A DNA stretch of 64,000 bases from Amoebophrya sp. A120 (taxonomy: Eukaryota; Protista; Dinoflagellata): the NCBI GenBank assembly GCA_905178155.1, contig CAJINV010000007.1:283279-347278 (forward strand), read 5' to 3'. Position 1 is the stretch's first letter. Every line of letters begins with the position of its first letter. The notes under the pieces are model-generated. The model worked only from the letters and a program-made list of their open reading frames with translations. It did no database searches and was not told the DNA's origin. Below, one piece after another: positions 226-64,000 of this stretch. The position numbers and the translations under genes are program-made.

Positions 226-3200
226 ATGGTCGTCAGCAAGTCATCGAACTTCACCGGGCGAAAAATGTCCATCATTTGCAAAAACGTCCCCGCCCCAGAC
301 TTGTCATGCAAACTGGCATGTCTAAAATGTTTCTCATGCGCAGCCCCATGATCATGAGAGCCATTTTCTATCTGGGAGTTTGTTTGTTATGCTGAAATCC
401 GGATGAGGTGATGCGTCTGCACTACCTCGAACAGAACTACACTACGGATCCAAATCTGTCATGCGAAACAGCCAAAAGTTGGCGATTTGTGTAGCAATAA
501 AGACACCATCTTGATTCTGGGGCCGGGCCGCCGTTTTTGCTCAGGATAATCTCCAGTAAATTGTCGGTGAAACGCACCGGAAACGACTGGTAATACGGAT
601 GGTACAAGAACTCCTCGAGGTTTATTTTTTTGCCAAAAACTGGTGTCTTTTCCGACACTTGCAACAGCTTGCTACGGTGGATGAACGGCTCTCCTTGTGC
701 CTTTTTACTGTCTCCCCCCACAACTTCCTCGTCGCTCGGCCACCCATACTTCGCATCTTTCGGGAGGAAGATCGGGGTGTCTTGCGTAACCACTTTCCAT
801 ATGGACTGCAAAAATGTCTGGGTCTGGAAATCACGCAAGTCGCGCTCGCGGACCACACTCATAGTCTGTAATGCAAACAGAAGCATCACAGATTTTTTGA
901 GACCTTCCGTATGCTTATTCCGCATGAGAAATTCGCCCTCTGCCTAGCGAGAATTGCGTAACTGTTGGCGTTCATGCAACACAGATTTTTTTGTGATCCG
1001 AAATCGCATGAAGACAGGCTTTATGTTTATTCTTCCAGACCCAGACATATTTGCAATGCATATTCCAGACGGTTTCGCTCATGGGAAACTGTCGGTCGCC
1101 CATTTGGACAAAAAGCTCGTTCGCCGCTGCTGGTGCTTCTTGTCCTCCCTTGATTGATTCTTTATCTTTCCCCCACCGGACCGGGATACTTTGCAAACCG
1201 TTCCTCCGTATCAAGAGCAAATATGTCTGGGTCTGGAGGAAACTTGTGATGCAAATCTACGAATTGTGCGCGCACTACAATACGCAGCCCAGCATGACAA
1301 GTATTTGCGCTGCTGTGTGTTTCGTTTTTCGCATGACAAACTAAATTTTTGCATGAAGGGGCCCTTTTCCTGCTCATGCATCACAGATTTCAGACTCATG
1401 CCAGGCAGGCATGACAAACTTGCATTTTTCCCGACCCAGACAAATTTGCATTTGATACTCCGCCGGTAATCCGACACTGCGTGAAAAAAGTCGACCACTT
1501 TTACCGCAAATTTTCTGCGTTCCAGCACCCAAGATGTTTCACCTTCTAGTGGGTTTAGTTCCTCTCCTCTTGCCCTTCGTCGCCGTCTTTCGTAACGGTG
1601 TCCTCTTTCTAATTCTTGGGTATCAGTACTTGCTAGAACGGTTTCAATTTCGATGGTGACCCGCAAGACAGCCTCGTGCCAGTGTATCCTGAGTAAAAAC
1701 GTACCCACACCAGAGTCAAGATGGGGACTTTGCAACACAAACCTAGGAGTTTTGGGAGTCACGCATGACAAGTTTCAGTCCGTAAGGTAGTGCAAGTTAG
1801 CAAGGAAAGCCGCATCACAAATCGACCTGCTGATCCTGTTCACAGCATCACAAATTCCAAAACACGATTGGAAATGGCTCTCATGGGGATGCGCATCACA
1901 AATGTCTTTGTCATTGCAAATCTGCATTACAACTCTGGGGTGGGTACGTTTTTACTCAGGATACAGTCCCTCATGAGTTCAGTCCCGGCGTCTTCCAGTT
2001 GCATATCGTAGGAAAAAAGTGTTACAGTTACACACTCTGATGGAAGACAAGCAAGACAGACAACCTCTGTGATGCTGGAAATGCTTGCCAGCCTCATGAT
2101 TATTTCATTCGCGTTTATTTCCATTAAAGCCTGCGCATCACAGGTTTTCTTTGCCATGCAGAGCAACTTTGTGATGCTGAAAGTCCAACAAATGTGTAAT
2201 TGTAACACTTTTTTCCTGTGATACTGTACCACCTTCACATACCGCGCAAAATTGGAATCAGCGGTAATAGTAAGCTGCGAAGTGCCTGGAACAACATCAA
2301 GACCTCCTCGCATCGTCGTGCCAACCGCCGGATGTATTCGTTCACAGGAACACGGGGATCCACTCGAGGGTAGAGGTTCTTGCAGCGGGTGTCCTCGACG
2401 AACTTGCTGACTCAGCATGTTGATGTTGCTGTCCCCTCCAGTGTATCAAATGCAAAAGTGTCTGGGTCTGGAAGGTTGCAAGACTTGTCATGCAGATTTT
2501 CCATGACCCGCAACGCCTGTAATGCATGCCGTACCATCACAGATTTTTAGACGGCTTACTGATGCCTACTCCGCATGAGAAACGCCCTCTCCGCGTAGCA
2601 CAAAGTGGACTCCTCTTGCTGGTCATGCAATACAGATTTCTTTAGAATCCAGAGATAGCATCACAAGTTGCAACCCTCCAGACCCGGACATTTTTGCAAT
2701 CCATACAGTGGACATCAGTGCGCCGCCGGCGCGGCTGGTCCTTGTGCAAGGCGGACAAACCAGCTTGTCCCACCAATGAAAAGGTATCAAATGCAAATAT
2801 GTCTGGGTCTGGATGAGTGCAGCTTTGTCATGCACGTTTTGCATGAGCCATAATGTCTGTGATGTATGCCCTAGCGTGACAGATTCTTAGCAGGCTACGA
2901 CCATCCTGATGCCTATTCCGCATGACAAATGCCCTCCCCACGTAGCACAAACTGGGCTCCTCTTGCTGGTCATGGTGCAATACAGATTTTTTTAGAATCC
3001 CAAGGCAGCCTCACAAGTTCCAACTTTCCAGACCCAGACACTTTTGCATTTGATAAAAGGTGCCGCGCAGCAGTTGCTACTCTCTCTGAAAGTCTCTTCC
3101 ACCTTCTTCTTTGAAAATCTCTGGCGCGATGAACCGAGGCCGCGCGAGGACTGGGCAGCAGTAGGCGCCAAAGCAGTACCAGTCTCCTCCATCCCGGCCC

Positions 3201-6200
3201 AGCTACGTGCGATATAACAGTGCACAACTCCCCCTCCCCCTCATTTGTATAGCATGAATGGCAACACAAACATCAGCAATAGTGCCGGTTTTGCATGACA
3301 AAATTTGCAACGGATTATAGTGCCATTTGGGCTACCAGAACTTGTCATGCAAACAGTGCCAAGAGGCAAAGGGTGGACTAGGTATTTTGCATGACAAATC
3401 GGGGGAGGTGGAGTTGTGCACTGTGATATGCGACATACCGCTCCCACGTGAGGTCGAACTTGTGTCGTAGAATATCCGAGGCTATCAAATGCAAAAATGT
3501 CTGGGTCTGGAAGAATGCAACTTGTGATGCTGCATTTGGATATCTAAAAAAATTGTGTTGCATGAGCAGCAAAAGGATTCTACTTTTTGTTACGCGGAGA
3601 GGGCATTTGTCACGCGGAATAGGCATTAGGAAGCCCTCAAAAAACCTGTGATGCTAGGTCATGCATTAGAGGCATCATCGATCATACAAAATATGCATGA
3701 CAAGTCTCAGAATCTTCCAGACCCAGACATTTTTGCATTTGATAGAGGCAGCCGCGTTTCGGAATTCATGCCACTGCACTTCCCGGCAGTTGCTGTGCAA
3801 CGAAGGTTCTAGTAGTTTCTGCGGCATCTTGGGGACACAGGGGTGCGGCAGCGATCCGTAGCTGAAACTCAGAATCGTTTTCAAGTTGTAGGCGACCAGG
3901 GGGCTACCATATTGCTTTCGCAGGCCGTGTAAAAGAATGGAATATTGCAGCGGCGGGTACAAATCGAAATCTTTATGCAGAGGGTTAGTACGAGCATGAT
4001 CTTCTGGCAGTCGCTCGAGCAGAATCGGCGGGGGCGCCACGGACACAGCCTCGTATGGCGTCGAAATTGCCTCGAAAGCTATGGATTACAAATATGTCTG
4101 GGTCTGGAATTTTGTATAATGCTAAAAGTGAATGGTAGACGCATTGCAATATTACGCAGCTATGCATGACAAATTTTTTTGGCTGCCATGTCTTACGTAT
4201 TCCGCATGGCAAACTGCGTTTTTGCACGACAGGTAAGAGGGCCTTTTCGTGCCTATGCAACACAGATTCATCTCGAGAAGTCATGCCAGACAAGCATGAC
4301 AAACTTGCATTCTTCCAGACCCAGACATTTTTGCATTTGATAAAAACCTGCCTGAACCGATCTTCCGGGGGAGCTTTTGGTGTCTTCTCGCCAATAAAGT
4401 AATACTCTGGGCCATCTTGCCCACCCGGCACGTCTTGCTTTTTCTGCTCGTCCTTTTTCTGCTCGTCCAGTGCGTTTCGAGCGCACTCTTGCACGTCAGC
4501 TACAAATTTTCGATAGTCCTGACTGGCATGCTATTGAGAGGAAAAATCCCCCCTCCCCATATCGAAAAGGCATGTTTCCGAAAATTTGTGTTGCGTATTT
4601 GAGGTCACAAATCACGTCTGTCTTGCAAGAAGACAAGGGCAAAAGCTTCGCCCCCATTATGGAGGCGATTTGTCATGCTGTTGGGCCTAAAGCGGAGCCG
4701 TTTGCCATGCTGAACAACTAGACCGATACGCCCCTGCATAGCCTGTGGATCTGGCCGCGATGCCTTCCTGCAATACAAAGCCGATTTGTGTACACAAATC
4801 CCGCATCACAGATTTCCATTTCGATATGGGGAGGGGGGATTTTTCCCTTTGATACATGCAGCGTCATGACCGCGTGGCTCCACACGACAGAGTCTACTGG
4901 GCGGACCGGCCCTTCTTGTCTTCCACCGTATGCAAGAAAAAAACTGTGTGAGTGTAAATTTGTGTTGCAGAACATGCAACAGAGTTACACCTGTCATGCA
5001 AGACAGCCATGAAGCTCTCTTTTCATGTGTGTTTTGCCTTACAAGCCACGCATGACAGGTTTTCTCTGTCGTGTAGAGCAAATCTGTGATGCTGTTCCTC
5101 AAAGAAAATTACACTTACACACTTTTTTTTCTGGATACACCGATGAGTTCTTGTACTATTTGCGCAGCCGCTTCAGGCTGGAACTCTGTCACCACGTCCA
5201 GAAAGGTCATGCCGAAGGTCCGCGGCGCAGAAGACCTCGCGTACAAAAATTTCTCCACCTGCTCTTTTACTGCCTCGAGCTCGCTCGAGCTGACCTTTGG
5301 TTGCTTGGTGAGCTGGGGTAAGGACTCGTGCTTCAATTCGTCAACCACCAACGCCCGGGCCCGCAAAACCATTTCCAGTATGGGACGCAGCACGGGCTCA
5401 AACAAGTGCTCAAACATTGCCGCGCGGTGCAAAACCGTTTCGCCCAGAGGCGAAACCGAATAGGTGAGGACTATTTCCAGAAACGGCGCTAGATCTATCC
5501 TGAGGAAAAACGTACCCACACCAGAGTTGTAATGCAGATTTGAAAAGACAGGAAGACTTGTAATGCGCATCCCCATGAGGGCCATTTCCAATCGTGTTTT
5601 GGAATTTGTGATGCTGTGAACAGGATGAGCAGATGAATCTGTGATGCGGCTGCACTTGCTAACCTGCACTACACTGCATAGTGCAACTTGTCATGCGTGA
5701 CTCACAAAACTCCTAGGTTTGTGTTGCAAGATCCTCACCCTGACTCTGGTGTGGGTACGTTTTTACTCAGGATAAGATCTTGCAGTTGTTCCAACACTGT
5801 TCGCTGCCGGCGGGGAGAGGAGCCGCCAGCTGCATCTTGTTTTTTTTCTTCTTGCGGGACACCAATGGCAAACAAAAACTGGGTCAGCCACACCGCCCGC
5901 GCGTCCAGCGAAATTCGCTCAAATTCGCTTGGGTTCTGCAGCTGCTCGTAGCTCATCTTCTTTCGCACCGATGCAGCTGCAATCGCCCGCTCCATTTCCG
6001 TATCAACTGCAATTGTGTGTCTGGGTGTAGAAGAATGCCAGACTTGTCGTGCAGGTTTTCCATGACCCATGAGGTCTGGCATGTAAGACATAGCATGACA
6101 GATTCTGTGAGAGTTCTATCTATCATGCCTATCCTGCATGAAAAACCGCCTCTCGATTGGCTCAAAGAAAAGTGGACAGCTTTTGGTAATCATGCAACAC

Positions 6201-9200
6201 AGTAGATTCTTTACATGATTCAGATTTAGCATGACAAGTTGCTTTGCTCCAGGCCCAGATATTTTTGCATTTGATATTCCGCCTCCGCGTGGCCGAGCGC
6301 CCGCATGAAAACGGTCTCACCCTCCACGTTATCGTGAAGAAAAATCCCTCCTCCACATACTCACAATGGAAATTTGTGCTGCTGATTTGTGACCACGAAT
6401 CAGCTCTGTCTTGCATATGAGGCAAATGGGAGCCGTGTGGCGCATTCCACAGCCAAGCTGTCGTGCGCTTCTGCCTAATGCAAAGCGGTTTGTCATGCCT
6501 GCGGAATTGCCTGAGTGCTAGCCTTTTGCATATTTTTACCTGATCAGGCTTAGAAAATGGAATGCCTACAAGCTCGCTTGTTGCAATACAGCTCTGTGTA
6601 CAGAAATCCAGCAACAGAAATTTCCGTTTCAATATAATGGGGAGGTGGCTTTTTTCAACTTGATACACGTCCCGGGCCTGGAACAGTTCGTAAAGAATCA
6701 TATCGCTCTATGAATGTGCACAACCCCACCCCCTCGTCCCTCTCGTTTGTCATGCAAAATCCCAAATCCAGTCGCTGCCTTGTGGCACTGTTTGCATCAC
6801 AAATTTATTTATCGGGAAGCCCGAATAGAAATAGTTGTATTTTTACACATAGGCACATAAATTTGTTATGCATATGCACAGGCTCCATGCGTGCTGGCGT
6901 GGTCATGTGTATGGCTCTTCATGCCAACCTACAAATGAGGGGGAGGGGACGAAGTTGTGCACTCTCGTACCGTCACCATTCTGTCGTTTCCGATGTTTTT
7001 CGTGGAGAAGAAGGCCAAGCTCAAATGGAATCGCAACAGATCTTGATTGCCGCTCGCCTGCGCTGCTACGTGCAGCGGCGACCGTCTCAGCAGGTCTTTT
7101 GGCGCAAAAAACAGCTGCCATACGGCCGGGAAGGACCCAGCCTGTATCCTGTGTAAAAACGTACCCCAGAGTTGTCATGCAAATGCGCAATGACAGGAAG
7201 ATTTGTAATGCGCACTTCCATGAGAGGCATTTCCAGTCGTGTTTTGGAATTTGTAATGCTGTAAACAGGACGAGAAAATGGCTTTGTCATGCGGCTTTCC
7301 TTGCCAGCCAGTACTACACTGCAGATGGAAACTTGTCATGCAGAACCTCTAAAACTTGGGGATTTGTGTTGCAGACTTCCCATCTTGACTATGGTGTGGG
7401 GACGTTTTTACATAGGATAGCCTCCGGATTTTCGCTTTCCCTTTCTCGCTTCTCAAGTGCGGTTTTCAGCAGTTCCAATTCTGCGATGTGGCCTATCAAA
7501 AGGAAAAATGCCCCCTCCCCGTATCAAAACGGAAATTTGTGTTGCTGATTTGCGACCACAAATCATGTTGTCATGCTGGAGGGCAAAGGATGCGGACTGT
7601 AGTGCTGGCTGGCGTTGGAAAGCCTTGCATCTTCAGCATGACAGGAGGCAACTGGAAGAGGGAAACAGCATAACAAATTGCCTACAATTCAGGCGACAGT
7701 TGCGTCTTTTGCCTTTCTAGCAATACAAGTCGATTTGTGTACGCAAGTCCAGCATCACAAATGTCCTCTTCGATATGGGGAGGGGGGGTTTTTCCTCGCA
7801 ATATGGCCGAAGGGCGCGTCCTTGTGAAGTTTTTGCGTGCCCTCCGCACGCAGAAACCGAATTTGGTCCGCAAGCAGCGCCGAGCCTTCCCAGTCTTTTT
7901 CCTTGTCGTCTAACACTATCTTCAGCTTCGAAAAAAAGACCCCGGCCATCTGCAGGGTACTAGTCCGCTCCCCGGCCCCGGAATAGAGAAGATGAAAATT
8001 GCTCCGGCCTGCATTGTATCAAATGTAAAAATGTCTGGGTCTGGAAAAGTGGAACCTGTAAGTATTGCGTGGTTTGGATCTCTGTAAAATCTGTTTTGCA
8101 TGACCAGGAAAAGGAGCCTTCTTTTGTCATGCAAAAGCGCAGTTTCTCATGCGCACTACGCATGAGGAAGTGTCCGAAAAATTTGTCATGCTTGGTCGCA
8201 CTCAGGAGCATGTTCAATCATCGCCACCCAGCATCACAAGTTTCCAGCAGACCCAGACATTTTTGCAGGTGATACATTGTCTGCCCCCCGAAGCCAAAGA
8301 CGCGGAAACGTGCTTGCAATCGACCACTTGGGCTCCTGTGTTTCATCTTCCCGCCACACGTAATCTTTTTTCACTGCGTCCCATTCGAACATCCTATCAA
8401 ATGCAAAAGTGTCTGGGTCTGGAAAACTGCCAGACTTGTCATGCAGGTTTTCCATGACCCATGAGGTCTGGTCTGTAGGACAGAGCATGACAAATTCTGT
8501 GCGATCTCTCTCATGCCTATCCTGCATGAGAAACTCCCTCCCGACTTGGTCAAAACTGGACGACTTTTGGTAATCCGACAACACAGATTTTTGCATGTTT
8601 CAGATTTAGCATGACAAGTGTCACTCTTCCAGACCCAGACATAGTTGCAGTCCATACATCCCCTCGCGTGGCAATTGAATCTTTCCGAGCAATTTTTCCA
8701 TGAAGATGACATCCCGCTCCTTGCCCTATCACACAGAAAAAAGCTGGCAGGGCATATCTGTCATGACAAGTACTCGGAACAGCTTACATATCACAAGTAG
8801 ACGCGCATCTTGTGCAACTTGTGCGCCGTTTGTGATTTCAGGTCTTTTCGAAAACCGCTTTCTTCTTCCTCGCCTTGAGCGCTAGCCGAAGCCCAGTTGT
8901 TCGTCCTTTCTGCGCCCATATATGTGCGGCGAATGCGAAGCCTGTTCCTGTAAGAAGCTCAAAGCCAAGTCCATTCGTTTTACTTTCTAAAATTTGCGCC
9001 TTCTTTCTCTTATGAATATGTGTATTTATTTTTGCATTACAAATACCAGCCATGCCCCGGCTGACGCCGGGGCGCAAGGCTGTTGGGGCGGGGCAGGACT
9101 ATTTGCGGATCGGGCCACAGCGACAGGGCTTTACGGACAGCGTGACAGATCGAAGGAAGTTTCGGCGCCGGTTTGCGCCATGTCAACCCGCAGGGCCTCC

Positions 9201-12200
9201 TGCGCGCTTCCCGCGCCTTCAGGCGCTATGCGCAGAGAGCAGCTGCAGCGAAGCTTGAGGGCGAAGAGAAGCCGCCTCGGCATCGGTGCCGAAGCAGAAC
9301 TCGGACCGCGCTGCCCTTTGTTGATCACACACACGCCCGCCCCCGCCCAACTGGCTTCCCGGCGGAAGCTGTTGGCGCGAGCGGTTAGCGCGAGAGGGTC
9401 CGCGAGAGGGTGCGCGAGAGGGTGCGCGGGGGGGTAGCGCGAGAGGTGTGGGCCTACACCGTGAAACAGTCCCACCAAAATCGGCCTCGTGCTGGGCGGA
9501 TTCGGTTCTTTTTTACCCCCTCGCAGGCCCTCTTTTTGGCCTCTCCCAAGGGGTGTGGCTAATAATCCGGCTATACTCGCCGGTAGAGGTCTACAGAGGT
9601 GGCCGAGAGGTGGCCCAGAGAGTGCGCGAGGGGTTCGCCCTTATTCGCGCAACCTCTCGGCACCTCTGTCCCCCTCTCGCTTACCCTCTCCCGGCCCTAT
9701 CGGCCACCTCCGTCCCCCATAGGCGCGGCTTTAGGGCGACCGGTTCGGCTGGCTATACTCGCGCCACCTCTCGGCCACCCTCCCGAATGACCTCCCGCGC
9801 CACCTTTCCACCTCTGTGGACCTCTTTTTGACCTCTTTTCACGTCTTTTTGACCTCTCGGCCACCTCTCTTCTATCCTCTGTAGACCTCTTTTTTCGCAT
9901 GAATATAATAGATAGTGATGCCCTCCCAGCTTTTTTCTCTGGGATATGCCCATCCGGATGCGCATGCCACTGAAGGTTTCCGCTGTCTCCACCGAAGTGC
10001 TCGACCAGAGCTGCATCACCACCCACGAAACAAACAGGTCCTGTGCGGCTATCGTACCGGAGATCCGGTAATTTAATCCCAGCCTAGCTTTAAAAGCATC
10101 GATGTGCTTTTCCGAGACTTTGGCATCGCAGTAGGTGTAGAGGTGCCAGAGGAGGAAAGGCGAATCCACCTCCTGAGGGGAAGATGAAGAAGGGGTTGTG
10201 GACGACCACGCAGCAGCTCCTTGTCCTGAGGCACTACCACCTCTTCTACCTTGAGCAGCCAAATCCGCTTTGGTACTTCTGCTCATCCGGTCGTTCGTTG
10301 CCAGGTCAAGAAGACCAGCCGGGCCCCGTCCCGGCCCGGCGGTGAGAAGCCCCGAGCGACGGCGCACCTCGTCCAAGTGTGGCTGGGGAGGATGGCCTGC
10401 CGCTTTAGTAGAGTCGTGGTAAAATTTTTCGGTGTATGGATTGCAAATATAATGTCTGGGTCTGGAAGAATTCATGTTTGTCGTGCTTGTCTGGCATGAC
10501 TCTAAAATCTGTCATGCACGTTGCCCAAGAGCTCCGTTTTTCTGTGATGCAGAAGCGCAGTTTGTCATGCAGAATAGGCAACACCTAGGAGCTCAGAAAC
10601 TTGTGATGCTGTGCCAGCATTTGTAGCCTCCTCATGAGACGCCACCCAGCATCACAAGTTTCCAGACCCAGACATTTTTACTTTTGATACGGTGAGATCG
10701 CCGAGTCTGCGCTCCGTCCCGTAATACATCTCCGATACCAGATACCCAAGGGCCAGCGCGTTTCTGAACCCGTTTGCATTCCCAATAATCGCGTCTGCCC
10801 TGGAGCTATCAAAGAACGCACATATGTCTGGGTCCGGAAGTATGCAGATTTTTCTCATGCTATGTTTCCATGACCCAGATCCAGCAGGTCTGGCATGCCG
10901 GGCATAGCATATACAGGTTTTGAGAAGTAGGTGGAGCGCCGATGCCTATATACACATGACAAATTGCCTATTTTGCGGTTGACAAGGATTGGCAATCTTT
11001 GCTGTCTGTGCTTTTTTGTGTCTTGTGAAATGCGCATTACGAGTTCCACCTTTCCAGACCCAGACTATGTTGCACTTGATAGGAGCTCACTGCGATCAAA
11101 ATCGTGTGCAAAAACTGCGGGTACCGCGTCCCTTGTGCCGACTCCAGCGAATCCAGGGCGTAGAAGACTCGCCGCGCCGGACACGCCGAGACGTCGCTTT
11201 TTGCGTCCTCGCATGACCCGAATGATCCATCGCCCCTTGTTGGCAACGATCTGCGATGATGAACCAGAAATTGCTGCTGCAGTTGCAGATCTGGTAATTC
11301 CTTTTCTTTCATCAGAGGTCCAGTCTGAACCCCCGCGCCAACCTGGTTCGCCGTCTGATGCGTGAACCTGGATACTGAGCGGCTACTCAGAAATTTCGCG
11401 TAGTCGATCTCCATCTGTAGGAGCCGGAACATGAGGCTTGCGATATCAAAATGAAAAATCCCCCCACCCCATACTCAAACTAGAAACTTGTGACGCAGAT
11501 TTGTGATCACAAATCAGCTCTGTCATGCTAGAAGGAAAGACATGCGGAGCGTAGTGCTGGCTGGAGTGGGAAAGCCTTGCGCCTTCAGCATGACAGAGAG
11601 CAACTGGAAGTGGGAAACAGCATGACAAATTGCCTGCACCCGAGGCCACAACTGCGGCTCTTGGCCTTCCAGCATTACAAGTCGATTTGTGTACACAAAT
11701 CCAGCATCAAAAATTTCGTTTTGATATGGGGTGTGGGCTTTTTTCATTTTCATATGCGAGATGCTTCCAATTCTGGAGGATTCTTTTCGTGGTCACCAAC
11801 TGGCGTTGGCTAGCAGGATTTCCAACATTTTGCTGCAAAAACGATCCGCCCCCAAACAGCAAGGTCTCCGCATCGCGCACTTTGATCCATTTCTATAAAA
11901 GTGCACAACTCCCCCTCCCCCTCAGCTGTCATGCAAAATACCCAATCCTCTCTTTGCCTCTTGGCATTGTTTGCATGACAAGTTCTGGCAGCCCAAATAG
12001 CACTACACTCCAGTGCAAATTTGTCATGCAAAACCAGCATTCTTGCTGATGCTTGTATTGCCATTCATGCTATACTCAAATGAGGGGGAGGGGGAGAGGG
12101 AGTTGTCCACTGTCATAATTTCAGGATGGGATCCAGAAACGATTTGTGCTGCGTATCAACTGCAAACGTATCGCACTCGTATAAATGCATTGCAAATTTC

Positions 12201-17440: not shown

Positions 17441-17608
17441 TTAGCTGCCCTCCTGCGCCGCTAGCCTGGCGGCCTCGCGGTTTTGCCGCGCCTTCTCACG
17501 GCCCGCCGCTAGCCGTGCGAGGTTGGCCGCCTTCTTTGCGGCTTTCTCCTCCTGCTTCTTCTTCTTAGCCGCAAGCATCTTCTCGATGTGCTCGCGGGAA
17601 ATTGGCAT
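17441..17608 (-). CDS. Small basic Lys/Ala/Arg-rich helical protein, 55 aa (MPISREHIEKMLAAKKKKQEEKAAKKAANLARLAAGREKARQNREAARLAAQEGS)
   Basis: ATG preceded by AAAA. GC-rich, coding-like codon usage contrasts with the AT-rich surroundings. No family recognised. Confidence 0.5.
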   Translation of the reverse strand: MPISREHIEKMLAAKKKKQEEKAAKKAANLARLAAGREKARQNREAARLAAQEGS

Positions 17609-34709: not shown

Positions 34710-34908
34710 TGCATCTCGATGCACGACCCTGTGCAGCAACTTAGAACTAGACTACCTGCGCTAGAGGATTTCTTCTTCAAAGAAACTTTTTGTTTTTGGA
34801 TAAACTTCTTCAGCCTGCCAAAAGTGTCGCTTGGAGGTTGTGACACAGGAGGTCGCCGGTGTTGATTTGTAGTATGTATAGCAATAGGAATAGCTACTAC
34901 TACGTGTA

Positions 34909-35161
34909 TATCAAGTGTAAAAATGTCTGGGTCTGGAATATTGCGAGATTTGTCATGCTTGTCTGGCATGACAAAAAAGTTTGTGATGCGTGTCCAAGAA
35001 GAGACCCTTTTTCCTGTCATGCAAAAACGCAGTTTCTCATGCGAAAAACGCAACACAAAGAAGCGCAGATATTTCTCATGCTTGGCTGTGCATTACAGAG
35101 CATTCACCACTCCCAACACAGCATTACAAGTTTCCAGACCCAGACATTTTTACATTTGATA
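34909..35161. mobile_element. Introner family A outside CDS (probable 3' UTR)
   Basis: DR GTGTA. Confidence 0.9.
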
Positions 35162-35354
35162 GTGTAGTGAGTAAAATACTAAATCGGTCTTCAGCACAAC
35201 GTAAAAATGCTGTAATGCTAAGTTGTACGCAACTGCTGAAGTACCGAAGCAACCCTGGTTCGGCTGCTGTTGCTCGCGGTGTGCTGGTCGCTAGAATGTT
35301 GAGTCACGACTCAACTTACTCTACTCTACTACCAAAAACTCAACTTACCTACAA

Positions 35355-50679: not shown

Positions 50680-50863
50680 TACACTTACAAATGCAGAGTT
50701 GATGTTGATGTTGTACACATTATGTCTAAAAGTCTTCTTAGAATCTGCAATAAATCATCCAAAGCATGTAGGATCACCAGTTTGATGACCTCATCTTTCC
50801 CAGCGGCTGGTGTCTCTCTGTTGTTCTTTTCCCTTTCTACACATCAGTCAGTCAGTAGCACTA

Positions 50864-53800: not shown

Positions 53801-56800
53801 GTACTTCTTGACGGACATGATATCGAACGACCAAGGACCGACCACCTAGGGGACAAACTGAGACCCCGCAGTCTCTTCGAAAGGCTATTGACGGCCTCGT
53901 CGTCGACGGGTGCGCCGCTGGCACCACAATTTTCAGGACCACCAATATTCGCCGTTGTATCACCATGAGTCTCATGATCTACTTGTTCTTCTATCTGCAT
54001 TCTACTAGTTGCACAGCCACTACAGTGATGATTTGTGCCTTGCTCTACTACTCCTTCCATAGCGCCAGTAGCATCGGGACGAGCACTACTAGTAGTACTA
54101 TTGACAAGGCCATGTTGGCCATGCTGCTGCATTTCATTTTGATGTCCTGCTCGGCTGTCTTCACTGCTAAATAAACAATCTCCTGCACGGCCATACGATT
54201 CTTGTTTTCGATCTTCCGCCGTTTCGACATATATTTCCGGCTCCATGACGCGCAACAATCGGGTGTAGCTGAGATTCTCTCCCTGCTTTTCTTGCGGCTC
54301 ACCGTTCATTTCCGTTTCCACCAGCCCCGACCCCTTTCCAGGCTGCAGGGTGAGCCCGGCAACGATAGGGGAAGCGGCCTTGATTTCCATCGCCGGGAAA
54401 GTGCCAAGCGTCTCCAGCATGGCAAACCCGAGACCAAGCAAAACCGGGCGGCGGGTAAGAGAGGACAAAGGCTGTTCTTCACCTCCTGCTCCGGCGGTTT
54501 CGAAAACCTATTGGCAATACAAGAAGCAAGTATAGATCGATAAGATGGAGCATTGCAGACCATGTCTTCGTGTCGTGAGGCATGCTGATAAAAACAAAAA
54601 TGTTGAGAAAACTTGTACATGTTTGAGTAAAAGTACTATCACAAACGAAACACCACCTCGACCGTTTTGAAGATTTCTAGCTGCGCATAATACTATACAT
54701 AGGTACCTGAATCGGCTCGGTGAGTTGGTAGATGCCCGGCGTGAAGACGATGTCTTTCTTCTCCACATTTAACTTGTGATTGATCACCTTCGCAACCTGT
54801 TCCATCTCTGGCCGGGCAACAAAAATGTTTGAAAAGGGCCGGGTCTCTTCCGCACGGAGGATGGTTTCAGCTGCAGCAGGAGCAGTACCTTGCTGGTGAT
54901 GTTCTTCAGCATTTATTTCCTCTCGGTAGGTCAAAGCGGGGACTCTCAAGTAGTACCCACTGGATAGTACACGACGACGGCGGTGCAGATGGGAGTCCGA
55001 GCAGTCCTCGTCGCTGCCGGAGTTCTGCTTCTTCGCCGATGAACATTCTCCTTCGCGTGGTTCATCGTGGTCGTTCCCACTTTCGTAAAAAATGTACGGC
55101 TTCGACTGGAAAACGAACCCGTGGTTTTTGCTATTGGGTGAAGATTTTTTTGCAGTAGTAGCGGTGGACGCAACTGTCCTCGTCGACAAAAGTACCTGCG
55201 TGACGGCTGCGTTGGGGTTCACTTTGTCCAACGGGCCTCCGCGGTGGGATGATGCACTTCTTTTCATCTTCTCGGTAGAAGAGGAATCCCGATCCTCTCC
55301 AAACCCGAAGTCACACTGCAGCCCGACGAAGCTCCAAGCACCGCCACTGGCCCCTTTTTCCGCTTTGGTGTTCACAAACAGGAACTGCTGTTGGCTGCCC
55401 AGCGCTAGCTATGCATTGCAAATTGTATGTCTTGATCTCTGGAAGGTTTGTCACGATTGTCTTGCATGCAGTTGACATCTGAAGGGTTTGTAATACGTGA
55501 TGTCGTGTCCAGGAAGAAAAGACCCTTATTTTGCCAGGCGTGCAGTAGCATGCAGAGAACGCATGACAACATAAATAGCGCAAATATTTCTCTATGCTTT
55601 GCGGCGCAACATAAAAGTAGCTACACGGCATTCACTATTCACATCCCAGCATTTTTAGTACAAGTTTCCAGACATTCAGAGAAGATATTTGCGAATGATA
55701 CCAGCTATCCTGTGCAAAAGTATCGTACTCGTATCAATGCTAATGCAAGTCTTGCATTACAAACCTTGTTCTCAAGGAAGATTAGCATTACAAATTTTCT
55801 TTCTCATGCTAAGGAAATTATTTGTAATGCATTTATACGAGTACGATACTTTTGCAGTGCATACCAGCTCCCCCCTCACCAAAACGTCTGCCATGAAGCC
55901 ACCGCTGGTGTTTCCGTAGTATTGCAAGGAAAAATCCCCCCTCCCCATACTGAAAAGGTATATTTTTGGAAATTTGCGATGCTGATTTGTGGCCACGAAT
56001 CGGGTCTATCTTGCAAGAAAGCAAAGCCAGAGCCTTCGCCGCTTTACGCCGGCGATTTGTAATGCTGCTGCGCTGACAGGGCAGACGTCTGCCATGCTGA
56101 GCGCCCGCCTCTAGCCAGCCCCTTCCAGGCTTTGCATCTGCCTGCAGTCCTCTACTGCAAGACAAAGCTGATTTGTGTACGCAAATCCCGCAACACAGAT
56201 TGTCACTTTGATACGGAGAGGTGGGATTTTTCCTTTTGATACGTAGTCAGGGGTATTCATCTTGAGATGCAGGGATTGCAGGGAGCGGGTCGGTGGTGGA
56301 TCCTGGTCTTTTCCATCTTCACTGTGATCAAAGAACAAGCGCTGCTTGTTCTTTTCTTTTTCTACTGCTTGTCGTTGTTCTTGTCCTTCTTCAGCTTCGT
56401 CGTCTTCGTCGGAAGTACTGTCATCACAGTACCCCGGAACATCTTTCACGGGGCCATACATGAAACCCTTGAAGGGGTCCGCCTTCCCGCACATGTCCTG
56501 AAACATCATCAAGCGAAAGTCTCCATCAACAATTAACCTCCGAAACGGGCTTGCCTGCGAGACCGCGGCGTTAACCGCCCCGAGAATCCGCATGTTTTCC
56601 ACGGACCGCCAGAAGTTGCAGGTGCCGCCGGGCCCGAAGGTGAACTCGCTGGCGTTCGGGATTTGCAGATGCTGAATTTTTATCCTATGCAAAAGCATCG
56701 TACTCGTATTGCAACCATGCATCACAGATCTTTCTCTTAAGGTAAATCCGCATTTTCTCATGCTGAGAAATTTTGTAATGCATTTATACGAGTACGATTA

Positions 56801-59586
56801 TACTTTTGCAATGCATAATTTTCACTTGATCAGCCGTCTCCCCAAGCCCGTAGTACGCTTGATAGTACCCCGGAGTGATGGAAATGTCTCTATAATTTCC
56901 CGGTTTGAACAACACTTGCACCCGCGACTGGTCCGATCGGTCAAACTCGCGACCCGGGTACGTGGGGATCTCGGTGTCCCGGAAGTTGTTCACAGATATC
57001 CTGTTTGGTTCGTCGCGCTTCAAATTGTCGAAAAGCTGCTCGTATGAACTGCAAAAGTATCGTACTCGTATAAATGCATTACAAATTTCCTCAGCATGTA
57101 ATGCTGATTTGCTTTCACAAAAAAAATTTGTGATGCAAGACTTGCATTTATACGAGTACGATACTTTTGCACAGGATAGCTCGCTCAATCTATTCGCCTT
57201 GTGCGGGATCCTCGCGAACTGACGGCCCTTATAAAAAGGAAAGATGCCCCCCCATATCGAAAACGAAATTTGTGATGCTGGACTTCCGCACAGTCTTGCA
57301 GTAGAGGACTGCAGGCCCATATCATGCCAATGTCGAGCGGCTTTGGCCTAGGCCCTTAGCATGAGGAACGCGAACGTCTATGCTGTAGGACCGACAACAT
57401 TACCAACCGCCTGCATAATGGGGCGGAGCCCATGTCGTTGCTTTCTAACAAGACAAACACGATTTGTGGCCACATATCAGCATCACAAATTCGCTGAGGC
57501 GTTCCTTTTCCATACGGGGAGGTGGGATTTTTCCTGACGATAGTCCTGGCTGGGACGCTCACGGTTGCTCAGGATAGAGGATTTCTGCAGGCATTTGGGG
57601 TAGAACTTCTCCCCTCCAGTGGATACACTGCTGCGTGAACACCGACGACCGGATGAATCTTTATGTTTACCATCATCTAATATCTCGTCGCTAATATTTC
57701 TATCCGCGGGGGCTTGCTCTTGACGGTCTTTTCCACCAGAACAAGGTCTTGTTTCTAATACTGTAGAAGAAGCTCTACTTCTGCATTTCTGTTCCATCTC
57801 CTTCAGCAGCAATAGCCCCTTTTCCGGGCACGACCCCCGTTCCAGTGCGTAACCCAGAGAGTCCTGTCCGCCCCAAATGTTTCGCTCGATGTTCGTTTCG
57901 AAATTCCAGGGAAACCAAGGCTGGTCCTTTGGGTAATTCGGCCGGGGCTTTCCTTCAGAGAAGATGTTATCCAAGACTGTCTGCAGATTTTTCGTTTCCG
58001 CATCATTCTTCGGCGGCTCGATAACAACAACGTGGTGGCCCCAGTCCGGGTGCATAGGCTCCACCTCGTCGCAGTTGTTGTATAATTGTGCGTAAGAAAA
58101 ACGTGTGTGTCCCCTTCCACTCCGAGACTTCTTGCTATGCATACTTATTTGCATGCCCAGATTGTTGTAAGTATCTCATGCGCAGTTGGAGCCTGATGTT
58201 AAGCAGCAGTTTCTTATGCTGTCTGGAACTTTTTGGTGATCCTCTAATCAGCAAAAAGAGCCACTTAGATTTGTGATGCCTCTGCACTAGCCAACCATCG
58301 GACATCAATCCTAGAGACACAAACTTGTCAGGAGGCCAGATATTACTTACCCAATAAACCTTGTTGGTTTGTGTTGCAAAATTCCTATGCTCACTCTGGG
58401 CTGGGGACCACGTCGCTACTTTTGCTCAGGATATTATGTCTTGTCCTTGTCTATTTTCCTCTTCTGCCACAAAGAACTTGGACAACATCCGGACGTCTTG
58501 ATGCGCATTACCAACAAGGAGATCATGATCTACTTCATGTTCGTCATCATCTGGCACACCTGCAGAAGTAGATCCCGTCTTCAAAACAGCCGCCGAAACT
58601 ACTGGTGCGCCGGCACTTGTTTTTCCGGACCACAACGGGAAATAAGAACCACAAAAAAGTTCCGCCGTAAAGAATATGCATTGCAAAAATGTCTGGGTCT
58701 GGAAAAATGTAGGACTTGTTATGCTTGTCTGGCATGCCTCTTGGATCTACTGTGATGCGTAAGCAGGAACGGGGCCTCTTGCCTGTCATGCAAAAACGCA
58801 GTTTGCCATGCAGAAAACGAAACACATGGCAGTGCAAAAACTTGTCATGCTTGGCTGCATATTTTAGTGCGCCCACCATTCAGAGATTTGCATCACAAAT
58901 TTCCAGACCCAGACATTTTTGCATTTGATAAAGAACAGCTGCAGTGCTGTTCCCGCCGCAAAGGAAATCATCGTCCTGAAGACCGCAGACCGAGCTATAT
59001 CAAGGTGAAAAAAAATTCCCCCTCCCCATATTAAAATCGAAATCTGTGATGCGGGACTTGTGTACACAGCTCGAGTCTGTCTTGCAGTAGAGGACTGCGC
59101 GCAGATCCGAGGCCTAGGCTGGGGCCTTTTGCTGTAGGCGCCTCGCATGACAGACATCTTCCTTATAGGCCTTACCGCATTACAAATCGCCTGCATAGCG
59201 TGCCGGACTGTCTGCACTTGCCTTCATGCAAGACAGACAGCATTCGTGGTCACAAATTTGCATGGCAAATCTTCAAGAAGGATGCACTTTCGATATGGGG
59301 AACGAAATTTTTCCGCACAATAAGCTAGTCCGGACGAAGGTAGTTCGCGATGGAAAGAGCATGTGTCTTCCCCAGCAGCACGACGAGCGGAAAACTTCCA
59401 ACGTGGAGAATCTTCACGAGCGGAGGTGCGACGTCGACTTTCGGTGCTACGCAAATGGAGGCTGGTGAATATTTTCCTCTTATTTTTTCCAACCAGGAGG
59501 ACACTGCGAGAAGGCGAATTTGTTTCCGAAAACTGTTGTGTCTGTCCTGGGACAAAATTTTTTTGCTGGCTAAAAATAAACGACAT
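50864..59586 (-). CDS. Multi-exon gene (15 introner introns + 1 canonical intron): bacterial-type GH55 exo-beta-1,3-glucanase (laminarinase)
   Basis: Spliced motifs appear in the order known from Streptomyces-type GH55: VLFKPGNY, GYYQAYYGLGE, NFWRSVEN, AVSQASPFRR, TSGGFMAD, GSQQQF, FTPGIY, VLLGLGFA, LQDIVIRVGG, WGWRADH, AYGLAVEH, VFYQCELPYD, HKLFGAGVY. The start codon (59586) and last exon are less certain. Confidence 0.85.
51043..51303. mobile_element. Introner family A
   Basis: DR ATCAA/ATCGG. Confidence 0.85.
51384..51635. mobile_element. Introner family A with a deletion inside the right TIR
   Basis: DR GACTA/GACAA; GACCCAGAC missing from right TIR. Confidence 0.85.
52029..52352. mobile_element. 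Introner family C, degenerate
   Basis: DR ATGTC/CTGTC. Confidence 0.85.
52413..52722. mobile_element. Introner family B, degenerate
   Basis: DR ACTCC/ACTCG. Confidence 0.8.
52884..53036. mobile_element. Introner family F, degenerate
   Basis: DR CTAGG/CAACG; frame restored. Confidence 0.8.
53114..53387. mobile_element. Introner family A
   Basis: DR CACCC/CACCA; right end CCTA. Confidence 0.8.
54508..54706 (-). other. Canonical GT-AG spliceosomal intron (199 bp) in the GH55 gene
   Basis: Minus strand CAG|GTACCT...TTGTATTGCCAATAG|GTT. Joins FTPGIYQLTEPIQ to VFETAG...VLLGLGFA in frame. No TIR. Confidence 0.8.
55410..55700. mobile_element. Introner family A, degenerate (stacked against the next element)
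   Basis: DR CTAGC/CCAGC. Confidence 0.8.
55706..55863. mobile_element. Introner family F (stacked)
   Basis: DR CCAGC, shared with the neighbouring element. Confidence 0.9.
55920..56241. mobile_element. Introner family C
   Basis: DR CGTAG. Confidence 0.9.
56681..56817. mobile_element. Introner family F
   Basis: DR ATTTT. Confidence 0.9.
57043..57178. mobile_element. Introner family F
   Basis: DR GCTCG. Confidence 0.9.
57230..57542. mobile_element. Introner family C
   Basis: DR GCCCT/GTCCT. Confidence 0.85.
58081..58433. mobile_element. Introner family B, highly degenerate
   Basis: TATA...CTCAGGATA; DR TGTTG/TTATG; frame restored. Confidence 0.65.
58675..58930. mobile_element. Introner family A
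   Basis: DR AAGAA. Confidence 0.9.
58998..59322. mobile_element. Introner family C
   Basis: DR AGCTA. Confidence 0.9.
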
Positions 59587-60210
59587 TTTGTATTGCTTTA
59601 CTCCAGGTAGTTGCACTTGCAAGAACTCTGGTCACAACAATAATCAACACAAAAATATCAAAAAAGAGACAGTAATAGACAGTAGACACAGAGTGACAAC
59701 TTACACAAGCGGACCTCCGCGAACGGGAAAAACTCTTCCGGTGTTCGTGTTTGTCGACTTGTAAACTAGCCCTGTCCTACTAAATCCACTTCACCTTCTT
59801 GCTAAGTTCATCTAGAGGTTGACATGGAGTTGAAAAAAAAATGATTTAGTCGATGTCTAACAAGGTACTACCCTACGTGCTTATTGTTAAAAGTATGTTG
59901 ACCGGCACGCAAGACGTGTTGAGATTACTATTTAAAAGTACTATGCTCGACGTATTGAGATTGAGATTGACCCAGCCAGCCGCGTCCAGGAAAATCATTC
60001 ACATTTGTGTTTTTTATCAACTGGCACCTCTGACGGGAGGACGAGGAAGTTTTTCTTTCTCCATGTCTATGTATGTAGCCGCGTTTTATTTTTCTTGACT
60101 TGCTATACGACTAGTTTTTCTAACCGCCCCTCTATATTTAGTACCAACTTCGACTTCTGAACGGGAAAAAGCTTTCCGATGTTCGCCGAAGGGTATTTGT
60201 TTTTGAAGAA

Positions 60211-60506
60211 TATCCTACGTAAAAACGCCCCCCACCGACCCCATCGTTGTCATGCTAATCTGCATGCATTGCATGTTTCTCATGCGGAGCCCCGTGACAA
60301 AAATGCTCTAGTAGTGTTTTGGAATAATTTGCGTTGCTCCAATCAGCGCAATATGCTAGGTCTGTGATGCTCCTGAACTAGCTCAACAGGATTACATTAC
60401 GGGACCAAACGTGTCATGCGCAATAACCGACTCTGGTTGATTTGTCTACCAGATTTGCCATCTTGACTCTCGGGTGGTCGTGGGGACGCTTTTGCTCAGG
60501 ATCATA
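60211..60506. mobile_element. Introner family B, degenerate, outside recognised CDS
   Basis: B-type TIR remnants; DR AAGAA/CAGAA. Confidence 0.7.
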
Positions 60507-61208
60507 CAGAAAGCTAGTAAACCATCACCACCATCTTCATGACACAACCCGGAGAGATCTCTCCAAGGTTCTTCGGGCGGGTCCTACCCAAAGAGTAAGG
60601 AGGTAGTGTCGCGACACGAGGTCGTTGTATTTTTAGTTTATCGAAATGTCGCTCGGATGGTGCTGACCTTTAGTTATAGATACTCGTTGATCATGATCTC
60701 TACAAAAATTGAAATTCCCAGACCACACTGACTGGAAACTCTTTTTTATACTGTGCCTGAAGAAAAAAATCGGTAGCAGAGCGGCGGAGGTAAATTGGTA
60801 TCGATATCGATATGCACTACATCATACAGTAAAATAATCTCATCGACCACTTCTATCTTTCTAAGGGTGCAGAAAACAGGATCGATTTGGCAGTTCACTT
60901 AAAGTGTGAAGATTCTCGTTCTTCCATTCTGCCCATCTCGGGAGATGATCATGAGCCGGATAATCAATTGCTATTGCACGGCACCAGCCTTGCCTTGGCT
61001 GCATTACTGGATCCTAGTACATCGTGATCTATGAAAACAGATACTTAGTACTCGACCGCTAGCTGGACTTCAGCTTTATGGAGATCTTCTACGAGTACTT
61101 CTACTGCTAGCACATCACGACTGCTCGATCTCGATCAAAAGCGTGCAGTTCTTGCAAGTTGATCTCCAGCCTCTGCCATGATCAAGATAACGCTTCGGAG
61201 CTTTCGGC

Positions 61209-61625
61209 TTGTCCCAGGTTTGTCCCACCTCTGTCTCAGGTTTGTCCAGTCCCACCCCTGGCTCAGGTGCGTCCCAGGTTTGTCCCACCTCTGTCCCAGG
61301 TTTGTCCCACCTCTGTCCCAGGTTTGTCCTCCCACCCCTGTCCCACCTCTGTCCCAGGTTTGTCCCACCTCTGCCTCAGGTTTGTCCCACCTCTGTCCCA
61401 GGTTTGTCCCACCTCTGTCACAGGTTTGTCCCCCTTCTGGCACACCCCTGTCACAGGTTTGTCCCACCCCTGTCCCAGGTTTGTTCCACCTCTGTCAAAG
61501 GTTTGCCACACCTCTGTCCCAGGTTTGTCCCACCCCTGTCCCAGGTTTGTCCCACCCCTGTCCCAGGTCTGTCCCAGGTTTGTCCCCGGTCTGTCCCAGG
61601 TCTGCCCAAAGTTTGTCCCAGATTT
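61209..61625. repeat. ~22-bp minisatellite (TGTCCCAGGTTTGTCCCACCTC; 11-bp sub-period)
   Basis: Direct reading. Confidence 0.95.
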
Positions 61626-62408
61626 GACCACGACGGACTACGAAAGCACTTAAAGCACACACGCGACTACGATCCGCAAGTACGATATACTAGGACCTTC
61701 ACACTGTCTGCTATCGGTATTTATAGTGGAATCTTGTTGTACTTGTACAACTACAACCGACATCCATATTTATTCGCGGCACACACACACACGTAGGAAG
61801 TTCTACACTTTGTCTTTCGCGGCACACATGATGATGAGCATGCGTAGTAATTTCGAACACCAGCTCGAGGTCAGGTGTTCGCGGGAAAGTTTTTTTCCAC
61901 TTCATGGAGGATTTTCCCGATAGTTTGATGTTGTCCGAATGGATTATGTTTGTGCTTACGTGAAAAATCGTACAGATGGATCATCAACACAATCTCGAGG
62001 ATGATCGTCGTGGAGCTTTTGTTCAATACTTACGTCTACATGCTTCTAGAAAAATTATACATGGTTCTGGTGCTGACGAGTCCGTTTTGGTGGAGAGAGA
62101 CGAGAGGAGCACGTGGATTTTTAAAATCATGGCTGTATGCACTGTGATTATATCTCTTTTTTTTTTTCAATTTGATGAATAAAATATAGCCAGGCGCATC
62201 AAGAGGCTCGCCACTCCCTGGCCCAACGTGTGGCCCGACGTGAAATCCAGGAGAGCACATCACGCGATTGTTGCCTTCTGTAAGACTGCCGGCAGTCTTC
62301 TACCTGCATCTTCTGCTACTTATCTATCATCTTCTGAGTACTTCACGCCAACGCTTTCGACATCGCAAAATACAATAAGTAACGCCATGAGATAATTGCT
62401 GTCAAAGT

Positions 62409-62487
62409 ACTTCCTTCTTTCAAAACTACTTCTTCCTTCAAAACTACTTCTTCCTTCAAAACTACTTCTTCCTTCAAAACTACTTCT
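62409..62487. repeat. 18-bp tandem repeat (CTTCCTTCAAAACTACTT) x4
   Basis: Direct reading. Confidence 0.9.
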
Positions 62488-62822
62488 GATAGACAAGGCA
62501 CGTACGTGCTTTTTGTGCAATTAAATTCTTTAACCAGTGAATCTTTAAGCTCCCGCCAGTACTTTTACTCTATGTTCATGCGACTCATCCTGAAATTCCG
62601 AAAGTAGAGTTGAAGTTTCGATACTATTAATAGAAAAGCCTTTTCTTGTCTATTGTCTTGTGTTAAAGTTGTAGCGCTCGTCGATTCCCCACGGAAAAAA
62701 ATCAACAAATCCCTATCCTTCCGAGACAACGACTCACGGCTTCTCTTTCCGAGCTTTCAAAGGACTTCGGCTGGAACTGCCACGTTGACCACGGCCGCGG
62801 GGCTGGGCACTAGGGAGGTGAT

Positions 62823-63859
62823 CTACCCAACTGATGATCTACCCAACTGAGGTGATGATGATGATCTACCCAACTGAGGTGGAAGCTGTGGTCTTCTTGG
62901 CTCTGATCGACGGACGTATTCCTGCGCCACAGACAGCTTCTGGTCCACCAAACGAAGCTTCTGCATCCACATCGGATGAAATTCCGATTCGGTAAGCAGC
63001 TCCGGGACCAAACCCTGAATCCGCCCTTTATTGCTGAGCAACTCGTCCTTTAGCTGAAGAAGCTGCCGCTGCGCAAAAAGAAGCACCAGCCGCAGCCGCC
63101 CAGCCGCAGCCGCAGAAGCGCCAGCCGCAAACTGTTCGGCCGTCGGCCGCATGACGAGAAGCAGCCCCGCATGGTTTACACCGACTCCACGAGCTCCAGG
63201 ACGGAGCTTCGACTCCACCAGGAGAAGCGTCTGATTATGAGAGAGAAGCTCGGGAATAACGTCGGGCCAGGAAGACGGATCCAAAAGACCACGGCGACGA
63301 ACGTCCCACTGCTTCCGAAAAAGCTCCGACCATAGCTCAAGGAGGTCTGCCCGAGTGTCGGTCAGCCCCTCGCTCTCCGAAAAAAATATCCTGCGTAAAA
63401 GCGTCCCCGTTCCAGAGTCAATAATACATGGGCTTTTTGCTACACCAACCAGCCTTTTTTGGGTGTCGCGCATGACAAGCTTGGACTCGCAGTGTCGTAA
63501 GTACTAGTTGTGCTGGTGAGCTATTGTATCTGCATCAGAAATCGATCCACTACTCATCCTGATTCTAGCACGACAAAAACTGCCAGGCAGCATTAGAGAA
63601 TGCTGCTCCTGGGGCGGCGCGTGAGAACAAGTATTGCAGATTTTCAGGAAGACACGTCTGGCGTGAAGAAGCTTTTACACAGGATAACGTACCTTTCAAA
63701 GTCCGAAAACGAAAATAGTGGAAATTCAAGACCTCCCGATTCATTCTTCGCCAATTCGTCTAGATATTCAACGACCTCTCGACTAGATGAGCAGCGAGAG
63801 CGAGCCTCTGATTCGACCTGTGTAAGGGTAAGATTTTGCTCCCGCCCGAGTAGCCGTTT
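62823..63859 (-). CDS. 3' end (last two exons in window) of a hypothetical protein gene continuing beyond the window
   Basis: Exon 63687-63859 (KRLLGREQ...DFERY) joins in frame to exon 62823-63386 (SESEGLTD...GRSSVG*) across a degenerate family-B element. Confidence 0.6.
63387..63686. mobile_element. Introner family B, degenerate
   Basis: TATCCTG...CAGGATA; DR decayed (AAAAA/ACGTA) but frame restored. Confidence 0.75.
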
Positions 63860-64000
63860 TATTACAATGAAAAATGTCCCCACCCCCGAACTTGAAAGCA
63901 TTTGTATTGCAAACCTTTCCAAATGAAACATTCGCCCTCTTGCATGTATCAGCATCACAGATTTCCGATCGTGAATAGCAAAAATTTGTATTGCAAAAGA
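63860..64000. mobile_element. Introner family H (right end off-window)
   Basis: Reverse-complement match to the right half of 43058-43361. Confidence 0.85.

Follow-up and report, generated by a model that had tools for sequence, protein, structure and literature searches.

Introner elements in a 64-kb stretch of Amoebophrya sp. A120: common ends, a 5-bp duplication and a shared inner motif

The introns of the dinoflagellate Amoebophrya sp. A120 described by Farhat 2021 (PMC7789003) are bounded by inverted repeats that read TAT, seven less-conserved bases and at least three A, and are flanked by direct repeats of 3–5 nucleotides (nt), given as 5 base pairs (bp) in the legend of Fig. S19. A total of 29,850 such introns were assigned to 1,954 families (PMC7789003); the available parts of that paper state that no transposase and no U1 were found in A120 and leave the position of the intron border unknown. 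In the 58 A120 rows of Dataset S2 of Gozashti 2025 (PMC12130899), most families are terminal inverted repeat (TIR) DNA elements of unknown superfamily. Family 38 is listed there as ‘Ginger, 5-bp TSD, TA/TA termini’ (TSD, target site duplication), and the text of the same paper describes it as lacking Ginger homology and termini. Another Amoebophrya has mainly GT-AG introns (PMC12005148). Here, we describe 87 elements in a window of 64,000 nt of A120 (positions 283,279 to 347,278 of contig CAJINV010000007.1, assembly GCA_905178155.1), ‘the window’ being the whole stretch of DNA that was analyzed, and it is almost certain that they are introner elements of this organism.

The elements share with the published A120 introners the terminal TAT pattern, direct repeats over the exon-intron borders, a hairpin and the lack of an internal transposase (PMC7789003). 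They are repeated, non-coding and hairpin-forming, carry a TIR (family I in Table 1 excepted) and a border repeat, and are removed without GT-AG. By description, their lengths resemble those of A120 families in PMC12130899 (about 149, 209, 260, 278, 305, and 320 bp), while the window has no member like family 38, which is ~810 bp long with Copia/Gypsy-like open reading frames (ORFs). The published repeats measure 3–5 nt (PMC7789003), whereas those found here measure 5 bp in every clean case; PMC12130899 treats the families as diverse, with automated TSD calls from 2 to 11. The finding is already known, because the pattern (PMC7789003) and a 5-bp/TA/Ginger listing (PMC12130899), and thus the integrase-like inference, have been published. 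The first-pass annotation, made from the sequence of the window alone, had found that TAT termini with a 5-bp duplication fit none of the eukaryotic superfamilies it knew; this was overstated, as the entry for family 38 already contains the 5-bp/TA/integrase-like reading. Compared with the main text and legends of these papers, the additions are that the duplication is strictly 5 bp, that the two ends can be interchanged and that the families share an inner motif array; the published figures and family consensus sequences may already show them.

Element ends and the 5-bp duplication

Self-BLAST revealed many repeats of 140–350 bp in the window. When scanned without presupposing TAT or an A-tract, the window gave 128 pairs of inverted repeats flanked by direct repeats of at least 4 bp, and TAT/TAT ends with 5 bp formed the commonest class (50 of 128 pairs; the next class held eight). 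Among the 72 TAT..ATA pairs with a complementarity of at least 17/25, the repeat measured 5 bp in 50, 0 in 12, 1 in five, 2 in one and 8 bp in four (three of them within a tandem repeat), and 3, 4, 6 or 7 bp in none, with repeats of up to 9 bp covered both here and in the other loci described below. Selection by score yielded 69 elements, while three shuffles gave 0, 4, and 1 candidates. With 18 further elements added by hand through BLAST and inspection of their ends, the catalogue comprises 87 elements and 24,692 bp, or 39% of the window. They form 16 clusters by BLAST (three cluster pairs merge), and a comparison with Rfam gave no match for the elements.

The pattern that the first-pass annotation had noticed in unrelated families (TAT, a spacer, an A-tract and a 5-bp duplication) is borne out, as all eight termini it quoted occur as element ends, 1–11 times each. 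The logo across families is two-part, with information at positions 1–3 and 11–14 and little at positions 4–10. At least four A within positions 11–15 are present at 150 of the 174 element ends and at 32 of 1,192 other TAT sites. The differences at positions ~4–8 between the two ends of one copy were also seen correctly: left-right identity is 0.54 at positions 4–8 versus 0.76 at positions 16–25 (Wilcoxon p = 4e-7). The same holds for the deviating family I, whose element at 41364–41682 lacks the A-tract at both ends. Four example elements are predicted, without a shuffle control, to fold as long hairpins closing at the tips.

Perfect direct repeats flank 62 of the 87 elements, 58 of these repeats being distinct, and neither the target nor its surroundings show a base preference. 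The near-identical B copies at 5496–5774 and 44179–44457 carry AGATC and CGCCA, respectively; the duplication is therefore target-derived, as had been proposed from this very pair. Families insert in both orientations, with about balanced counts (19/12, 8/8, 6/6, and 4/5). A staggered cut by a DDE enzyme leaves a target duplication of fixed length, and a stagger of 5 bp would most simply account for the duplication seen here.

For comparison, at least 176 stretches were retrieved from metagenome_contigs with the family-A end pattern and kept as 164 loci, which belong to another assembly and are accordingly dominated by family A by way of that pattern; among the 68 matches listed, all contigs are JACKZZ01…. 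Of the 458 short pairs in these loci, 290 have a repeat of 5 bp, 124 of 0, 27 of 1, 13 of 2, three of 3 and one of 8 bp, and none has 4, 6 or 7 bp. The two-part logo recurs in them, so that a shared end logo is found in the window and, with family A dominant, beyond it. Viral contigs scanned with the family A and family B end patterns gave 0 and 0 matches.

Host genes and removal of the elements

When each element is removed together with 5 nt, minus-strand frames of 1,871, 2,087, 1,804, 679, and 700 amino acids (aa) emerge. After this +5 removal, 82 of the 87 elements are contained in minus-strand frames no shorter than 250 aa, compared to 21–33 after frame-breaking removals and 76 and 77 after removal of +2 or +8. 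Restoration of ORFs alone cannot fix the 5 bp, since +2 and +8 also keep the frame. Spliced gene 3 aligns without gaps to the annotated A120 protein P0001 over 1,797 aa (99.8% identity) and 217 aa (99.5%), and spliced gene 2 aligns without gaps to P0003 over 2,085 aa with one or two differences across 12 junctions. These gap-free matches indicate that the window stems from A120 or an almost identical strain and that the elements are introns. The family I element is not present in P0001, and the 1,209-bp intron at 21107–22315 is missing from P0003. P0001 has a precomputed Pfam match to PF00201 (UDP-glycosyltransferase domain) and a 1,061-aa A120 paralogue, P0002. A homologue search with host gene 1 retrieved none, and an exact-match lookup of three exon ORFs in the collection searched gave no match.

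No RNA data set was listed as containing the stretch. Four sequencing runs, one of which (X1) is probably RNA, were compared with window positions 1–15,300. A single X1 contig of 5,903 nt has direct joints at nine elements, including 794>1063, 1203>1458, 1679>1964, 3477>3745, 5490>5775, 8011>8275, 14219>14487, and 14720>15054; among 91 joints, 15 were listed, and six of the 15 lie between repeat copies. All seven gaps between the listed pieces of this contig equal the predicted spliced length, spanning 32 elements, and the joints fall within the duplication. The element and one duplication’s worth of bases are thus absent from what is likely mRNA.

No cut position inside the duplication yields GT-AG or GC-AG borders in more than 3 of the 87 introns. 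No difference between donor and acceptor ends is seen at positions 4–16 (p 0.17–0.99), and the asymmetry at positions 4–8 tracks the orientation of the element and not the direction of the transcript. The two intron ends are interchangeable. A G at position 4 as a donor mark (GUAUG-like) was rejected (19 versus 12, p = 0.28). As the A-tract-free family I is removed too, the A-tract is not essential for removal.

Decayed duplications bound the cut, which is counted here as the number of duplication bases kept in the upstream exon. The X1 contig requires at least 3 at 270–548, 2–4 at 2004–2223, at least 1 at 1685–1963 and, from a piece boundary, at least 2 at 4080–4342. The annotated proteins require at least 3 at 44507–44730 and 23949–24164, at most 4 at 22778–23039, and at most 2 at 20753–21031, where GC-AG is possible. 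The proteins of genes 1–3 do not resolve position 4 of the duplication, which is silent in them, and no read joint spans it. The cut is probably within the duplication and in most cases follows base 3 or 4. Published splice-motif tables for A120 contain an excess of NT…AN (PMC7789003, PMC12130899); we set them aside, since an aligner can presumably place the border anywhere in the duplication.

We lean towards a model in which the paired ends define the intron and splicing is guided by the end pair and not by GT-AG. The nearest parallel for such a removal would be the non-conventional introns of euglenids, which likewise have paired ends, no GT-AG and duplication-like border repeats (PMC12501133, PMC11282704). 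By description, they differ in their borders (N3CDG…CHGN5-6 versus TAT…ATA here) and belong to an unrelated lineage.

The inner motif, a putative mobiliser and competing explanations

Inside the elements we found the motif GCAWBACAR, with 320 matches in the 87 elements (shuffle mean 7, maximum 18) and 15 in the remaining 39.3 kb of the window. Each of the 290 elements from the other loci contains it, and a weight matrix places at least one site in all 85 short elements (mean 4.2). Neighbours in the same orientation are 31–33 bp apart in 91 of 214 cases in the window and in 290 of 689 in the other loci, a step seen in 10 of 15 clusters; three DNA helix turns correspond to 31.5 bp. The B copy at 1685–1963, for instance, has sites at element positions 33, 64, 112, 145, 194, and 225. 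With the motif and the ends masked, BLAST detects no similarity between the main families, and only three cluster pairs merge. The number, orientation and position of the sites vary by family, and the motif runs in the sense of the transcript 167 times and antisense 153 times. In family B, up to six motifs all point in one direction and copies are skipped in both orientations (1685–1963 and 5496–5774), and this rules out a strand-specific splice signal as the role of the motif. By analogy, GCAWBACAR is predicted to represent DNA-binding sites of a shared mobiliser. It was not found in the main text of Farhat 2021 (PMC7789003) or through literature searches.

Among transposons with similar hallmarks, Transib makes a 5-bp duplication with CAC termini, in contrast to the TAT seen here, and Tn7 also makes a 5-bp duplication. 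Tn7-type ends contain repeated binding sites with a spacing that follows the DNA helix (PMC10201428). The present elements are similar in that a short, constant tip is accompanied by a number of asymmetric internal sites, whose 31–33-bp step may likewise follow the helix and which are predicted to be bound. Tn7/Mu-type ends differ in their terminal TG, and Tn7-family elements in being bacterial, multi-protein systems. IS3EU/GingerRoot elements share with ours TA..TA termini, terminal inverted repeats and, for GingerRoot, the lack of a target base preference, but duplicate 6 bp (PMC6839031, PMC10045372), a length found in 0 of 72 and 0 of 458 pairs here. IS481EU resembles them in its TNT..AYA termini, but has duplications of about 4, 15, and 25 bp (PMC6839031, PMC10045372) versus 5 bp here. 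Ginger1 and Ginger2 have TG..CA termini versus TAT..ATA and duplicate 4 bp and 4–5/6 bp, respectively, with PMC10045372 and PMC6839031 differing on Ginger2. The elements belong to neither IS3EU/GingerRoot nor IS481EU, as the duplication length fails, and an integrase-related enzyme is the best guess because these two groups do have TA..TA and TNT..AYA ends.

We therefore favor, with moderate confidence, the following explanation. Non-coding inverted-repeat elements of 140–350 bp would enter coding exons in either orientation; one DDE/integrase-like transposase would act in trans, cutting at the TAT tips and binding the repeated inner GCAWBACAR sites; the staggered insertion would leave the target-derived 5-bp duplication; and splicing would read the paired ends instead of GT-AG. 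The anatomy, the duplication, the exact net removal, both orientations, the symmetric ends and the shared inner motif are observed, while the class of the enzyme, its being shared, the role of the motif and the structure-guided splicing are probable readings of them. That one such mobiliser serves all families appears somewhat more probable than the opposite. In this respect, the claim of the first-pass annotation (one enzyme or enzyme family, a 5-bp staggered cut, integrase-like chemistry) gains from the staggered cut as the simplest cause and from the shared motif, and loses from the missing transposase.

Several results weigh against this explanation. The Pfam scan of 113 of the 165 long ORFs (at least 220 aa) in the related loci yielded no transposase, integrase or recombinase, the matches being to host-type families only, and 20 ORFs of the window had no Pfam match of any kind. 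PMC7789003, in its available parts, argues against a general transposase-mediated spread. No superfamily in the available text of PMC10045372 and PMC6839031 combines TAT ends with a 5-bp duplication; the first-pass annotation had said as much but overstated the case, TA..TA and TNT..AYA ends being known. The motif was derived from the same elements in which it is counted, and the spacing counts have no null model and come from copies that are not independent within a family. The two-part end is not obligatory, given that family I lacks the A-tract. On the side of splicing, run X1 is only guessed to be RNA and has no DNA-run control, the raw RNA runs X9 and X10 do not cover the gene, and the annotated proteins confirm gene models and not chemistry, because they probably come from the same genome. 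Finally, one fixed cut position (3 or 4) fits seven of the eight informative sites and was rejected because it fails at 20753–21031, although the annotation there may follow a bias of the aligner.

The first-pass annotation had also read the bipartite end as a site of enzyme recognition, but it missed that the elements are introns of host genes, so that splicing, no less than a transposase, could maintain the shared end. Unrelated transposons would then have converged on this end because insertions with other ends would not be spliced out and would not be tolerated in exons. Such filtering of survivors is suggested by the location of 81 of the 87 elements in four host frames and of none in the long intergenic stretches; moreover, G+TAT and ATA+G would give GT and TAG, 20753–21031 could be GC-AG, and PMC12130899 assigns several classes of transposable elements to A120 introners. 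We nevertheless consider this unlikely, as it leaves unexplained why the duplication is always 5 bp and why a motif that is strand-neutral in transcripts (167/153) is spaced at three helix turns, and as the asymmetry at positions 4–8 is tied to the element.

Less probable still is a single ancestral element whose ends and motif persist as relics of descent, or serve as sites for a protein of the host that binds DNA, and would reveal little about the present-day enzyme. The shared tip, motif and 31–33-bp step fit a single origin, but the masked main families are without BLAST similarity apart from the three merging cluster pairs, and the family-specific number, orientation and position of the sites would need continued selection on the motif. 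A spread through RNA or a tyrosine recombinase (reverse splicing or Crypton-like circles) would suit the predicted long hairpin of the excised intron and the lack of a transposase in A120 (PMC7789003), in the scanned ORFs of the loci and in those of the window, but is very improbable, because reverse splicing into mRNA does not give equally common orientations, near-identical copies with different repeats show that no fixed core travels, and Cryptons are classed by the absence of the target duplication that is present here (PMC12130899).

Individual elements, long members and flanking features

The families and host genes are listed in Table 1.

Table 1. Introner elements, inner motif example and host genes in the window. 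DR, direct repeat.
Feature	Position	Strand	Remarks
Family A introners, 31 copies, 249–291 bp	800..58930		both orientations (19/12)
Family A example	3483–3744		DR GAGGC
Family A, further diverged copy	10807–11081
Family A-like, looks like another copy	46041–46306
Family B introners, 16 copies, 275–310 bp	270..63686		orientations 8/8
Family B example	44179–44457		DR CGCCA
Family B, further diverged copy	58172–58433
Family C introners, 12 copies, 310–346 bp	4532..59322
Two family C look-alikes	6330–6665, 52029–52352		cluster apart
Family D introners, 4 copies, 209–216 bp	2004..47831
Similar to family D in ends	2004–2223, 12760–13015		cluster apart
Family E introners, 4 copies, 216–224 bp, plus 6709–6969	3213..44730
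Family E, further copy	1–225		truncated by window start
Family F introners, 8 short copies, 136–158 bp, plus long member 21107–22315	12154..57178
Family G introner, 171 bp	24673..24843		DR TCGAG
Family H introner, 304 bp	43058..43361		DR GCGGA
Family H, second copy	63860–64000		truncated by window end
Family I introner, 319 bp	41364..41682		DR ACGCG; no A-tract; five inner motifs
Long intron, 1,220 bp, family G ends	8727..9946		DR TGCCC; nested GC-rich insert of ~870 bp
Long intron, 1,209 bp, family F element	21107..22315		nested insert of ~1.04 kb
Inner motif array, B copy 1685–1963	1717..1916		six GCAWBACAR sites in the same orientation
Host gene 1	153..15754	-	stop-free 1,871-aa frame after removal of 33 elements and 5 nt each
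Host gene 2	20011..30290	-	2,087-aa frame after removal of 12 elements; A120 protein P0003 (2,085 aa)
Host gene 3	35358..48049	-	A120 protein P0001 (2,005 aa) across 24 catalogued junctions
Host frames of 679 and 700 aa	50867..58166	-	six elements each; one gene or two

In both 1.2-kb members, passengers are nested in a short element, and this ruled them out as autonomous elements. The insert of 8727–9946 lies at about 9047–9917 between A and T, is GC-rich and, on the minus strand, begins with TC and finishes in CTGG, with a hairpin close to its 3' end. Measured against the general features of Helitrons, these ends are Helitron-like. The whole 1,220-bp intron is absent from the X1 contig, and a copy of the insert with 79–90% identity is present within an introner of another end type in a related locus (L022:757–1568). 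The insert of 21107–22315 (about 21225–22283) has a poly-T head and a 17-bp flanking repeat, and resembles a non-LTR (long terminal repeat) retro-insertion; three of its ORFs have no match in Pfam. Other elements apparently find a safe harbour in introners. Both flanks of this intron carry a copy of one short sequence (region 21900–22400), from which the spliced gene 2 protein gains a tandem peptide repeat of about ten residues.

As the first-pass annotation had stated, no autonomous partner was found among the 20 window ORFs and the two 1.2-kb members. Longer elements were represented in the 164 loci by eight pairs of more than 450 bp, which were rejected as candidates: six have a 5-bp repeat but span only 457–1,104 bp, and the remaining two have a 4-bp repeat and look like chance pairings. 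The 113 long ORFs of these loci had no transposase match, as described above.

The intergenic stretches 15755–20010, 30291–34900, and 48100–51040 contain no catalogued introner, while exons are interrupted once every few hundred bases, which suggests either targeting to genes or faster loss outside genes. All long host frames (153–58166) lie on the minus strand, matching the unidirectional gene clusters reported for Amoebophrya. A GC-rich intergenic block at 32300–34700 has internal repeats (32342–32398 resembling 34644–34701, and 33131–33294 resembling 33644–33808) and is possibly another mobile element; three of its ORFs had no Pfam match. Tandem arrays of short units are found at 49920–50205 (12-bp period) and 61200–61630.

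According to the available parts of PMC7789003, it is open how tens of thousands of non-GT-AG introns are removed and what spreads them. The terminal pattern itself adds nothing to that study. Of the additions, the shared inner motif in particular, but also the invariable 5-bp length and the symmetry of the ends, could serve as bait for finding the mobiliser, and decayed duplications allow the true splice position to be read from ordinary RNA reads. Tentatively, and with more doubt than conviction, one may picture all ~30,000 A120 introners, assigned so far to ~2,000 families of diverse or unknown origin, as one system: a new integrase-like superfamily characterized by TAT tips, a duplication of exactly 5 bp and helix-phased GCAWBACAR arrays resembling those of Tn7, whose members would be spliced by hairpin guidance three to four bases into the duplication, whatever their sequence or orientation.

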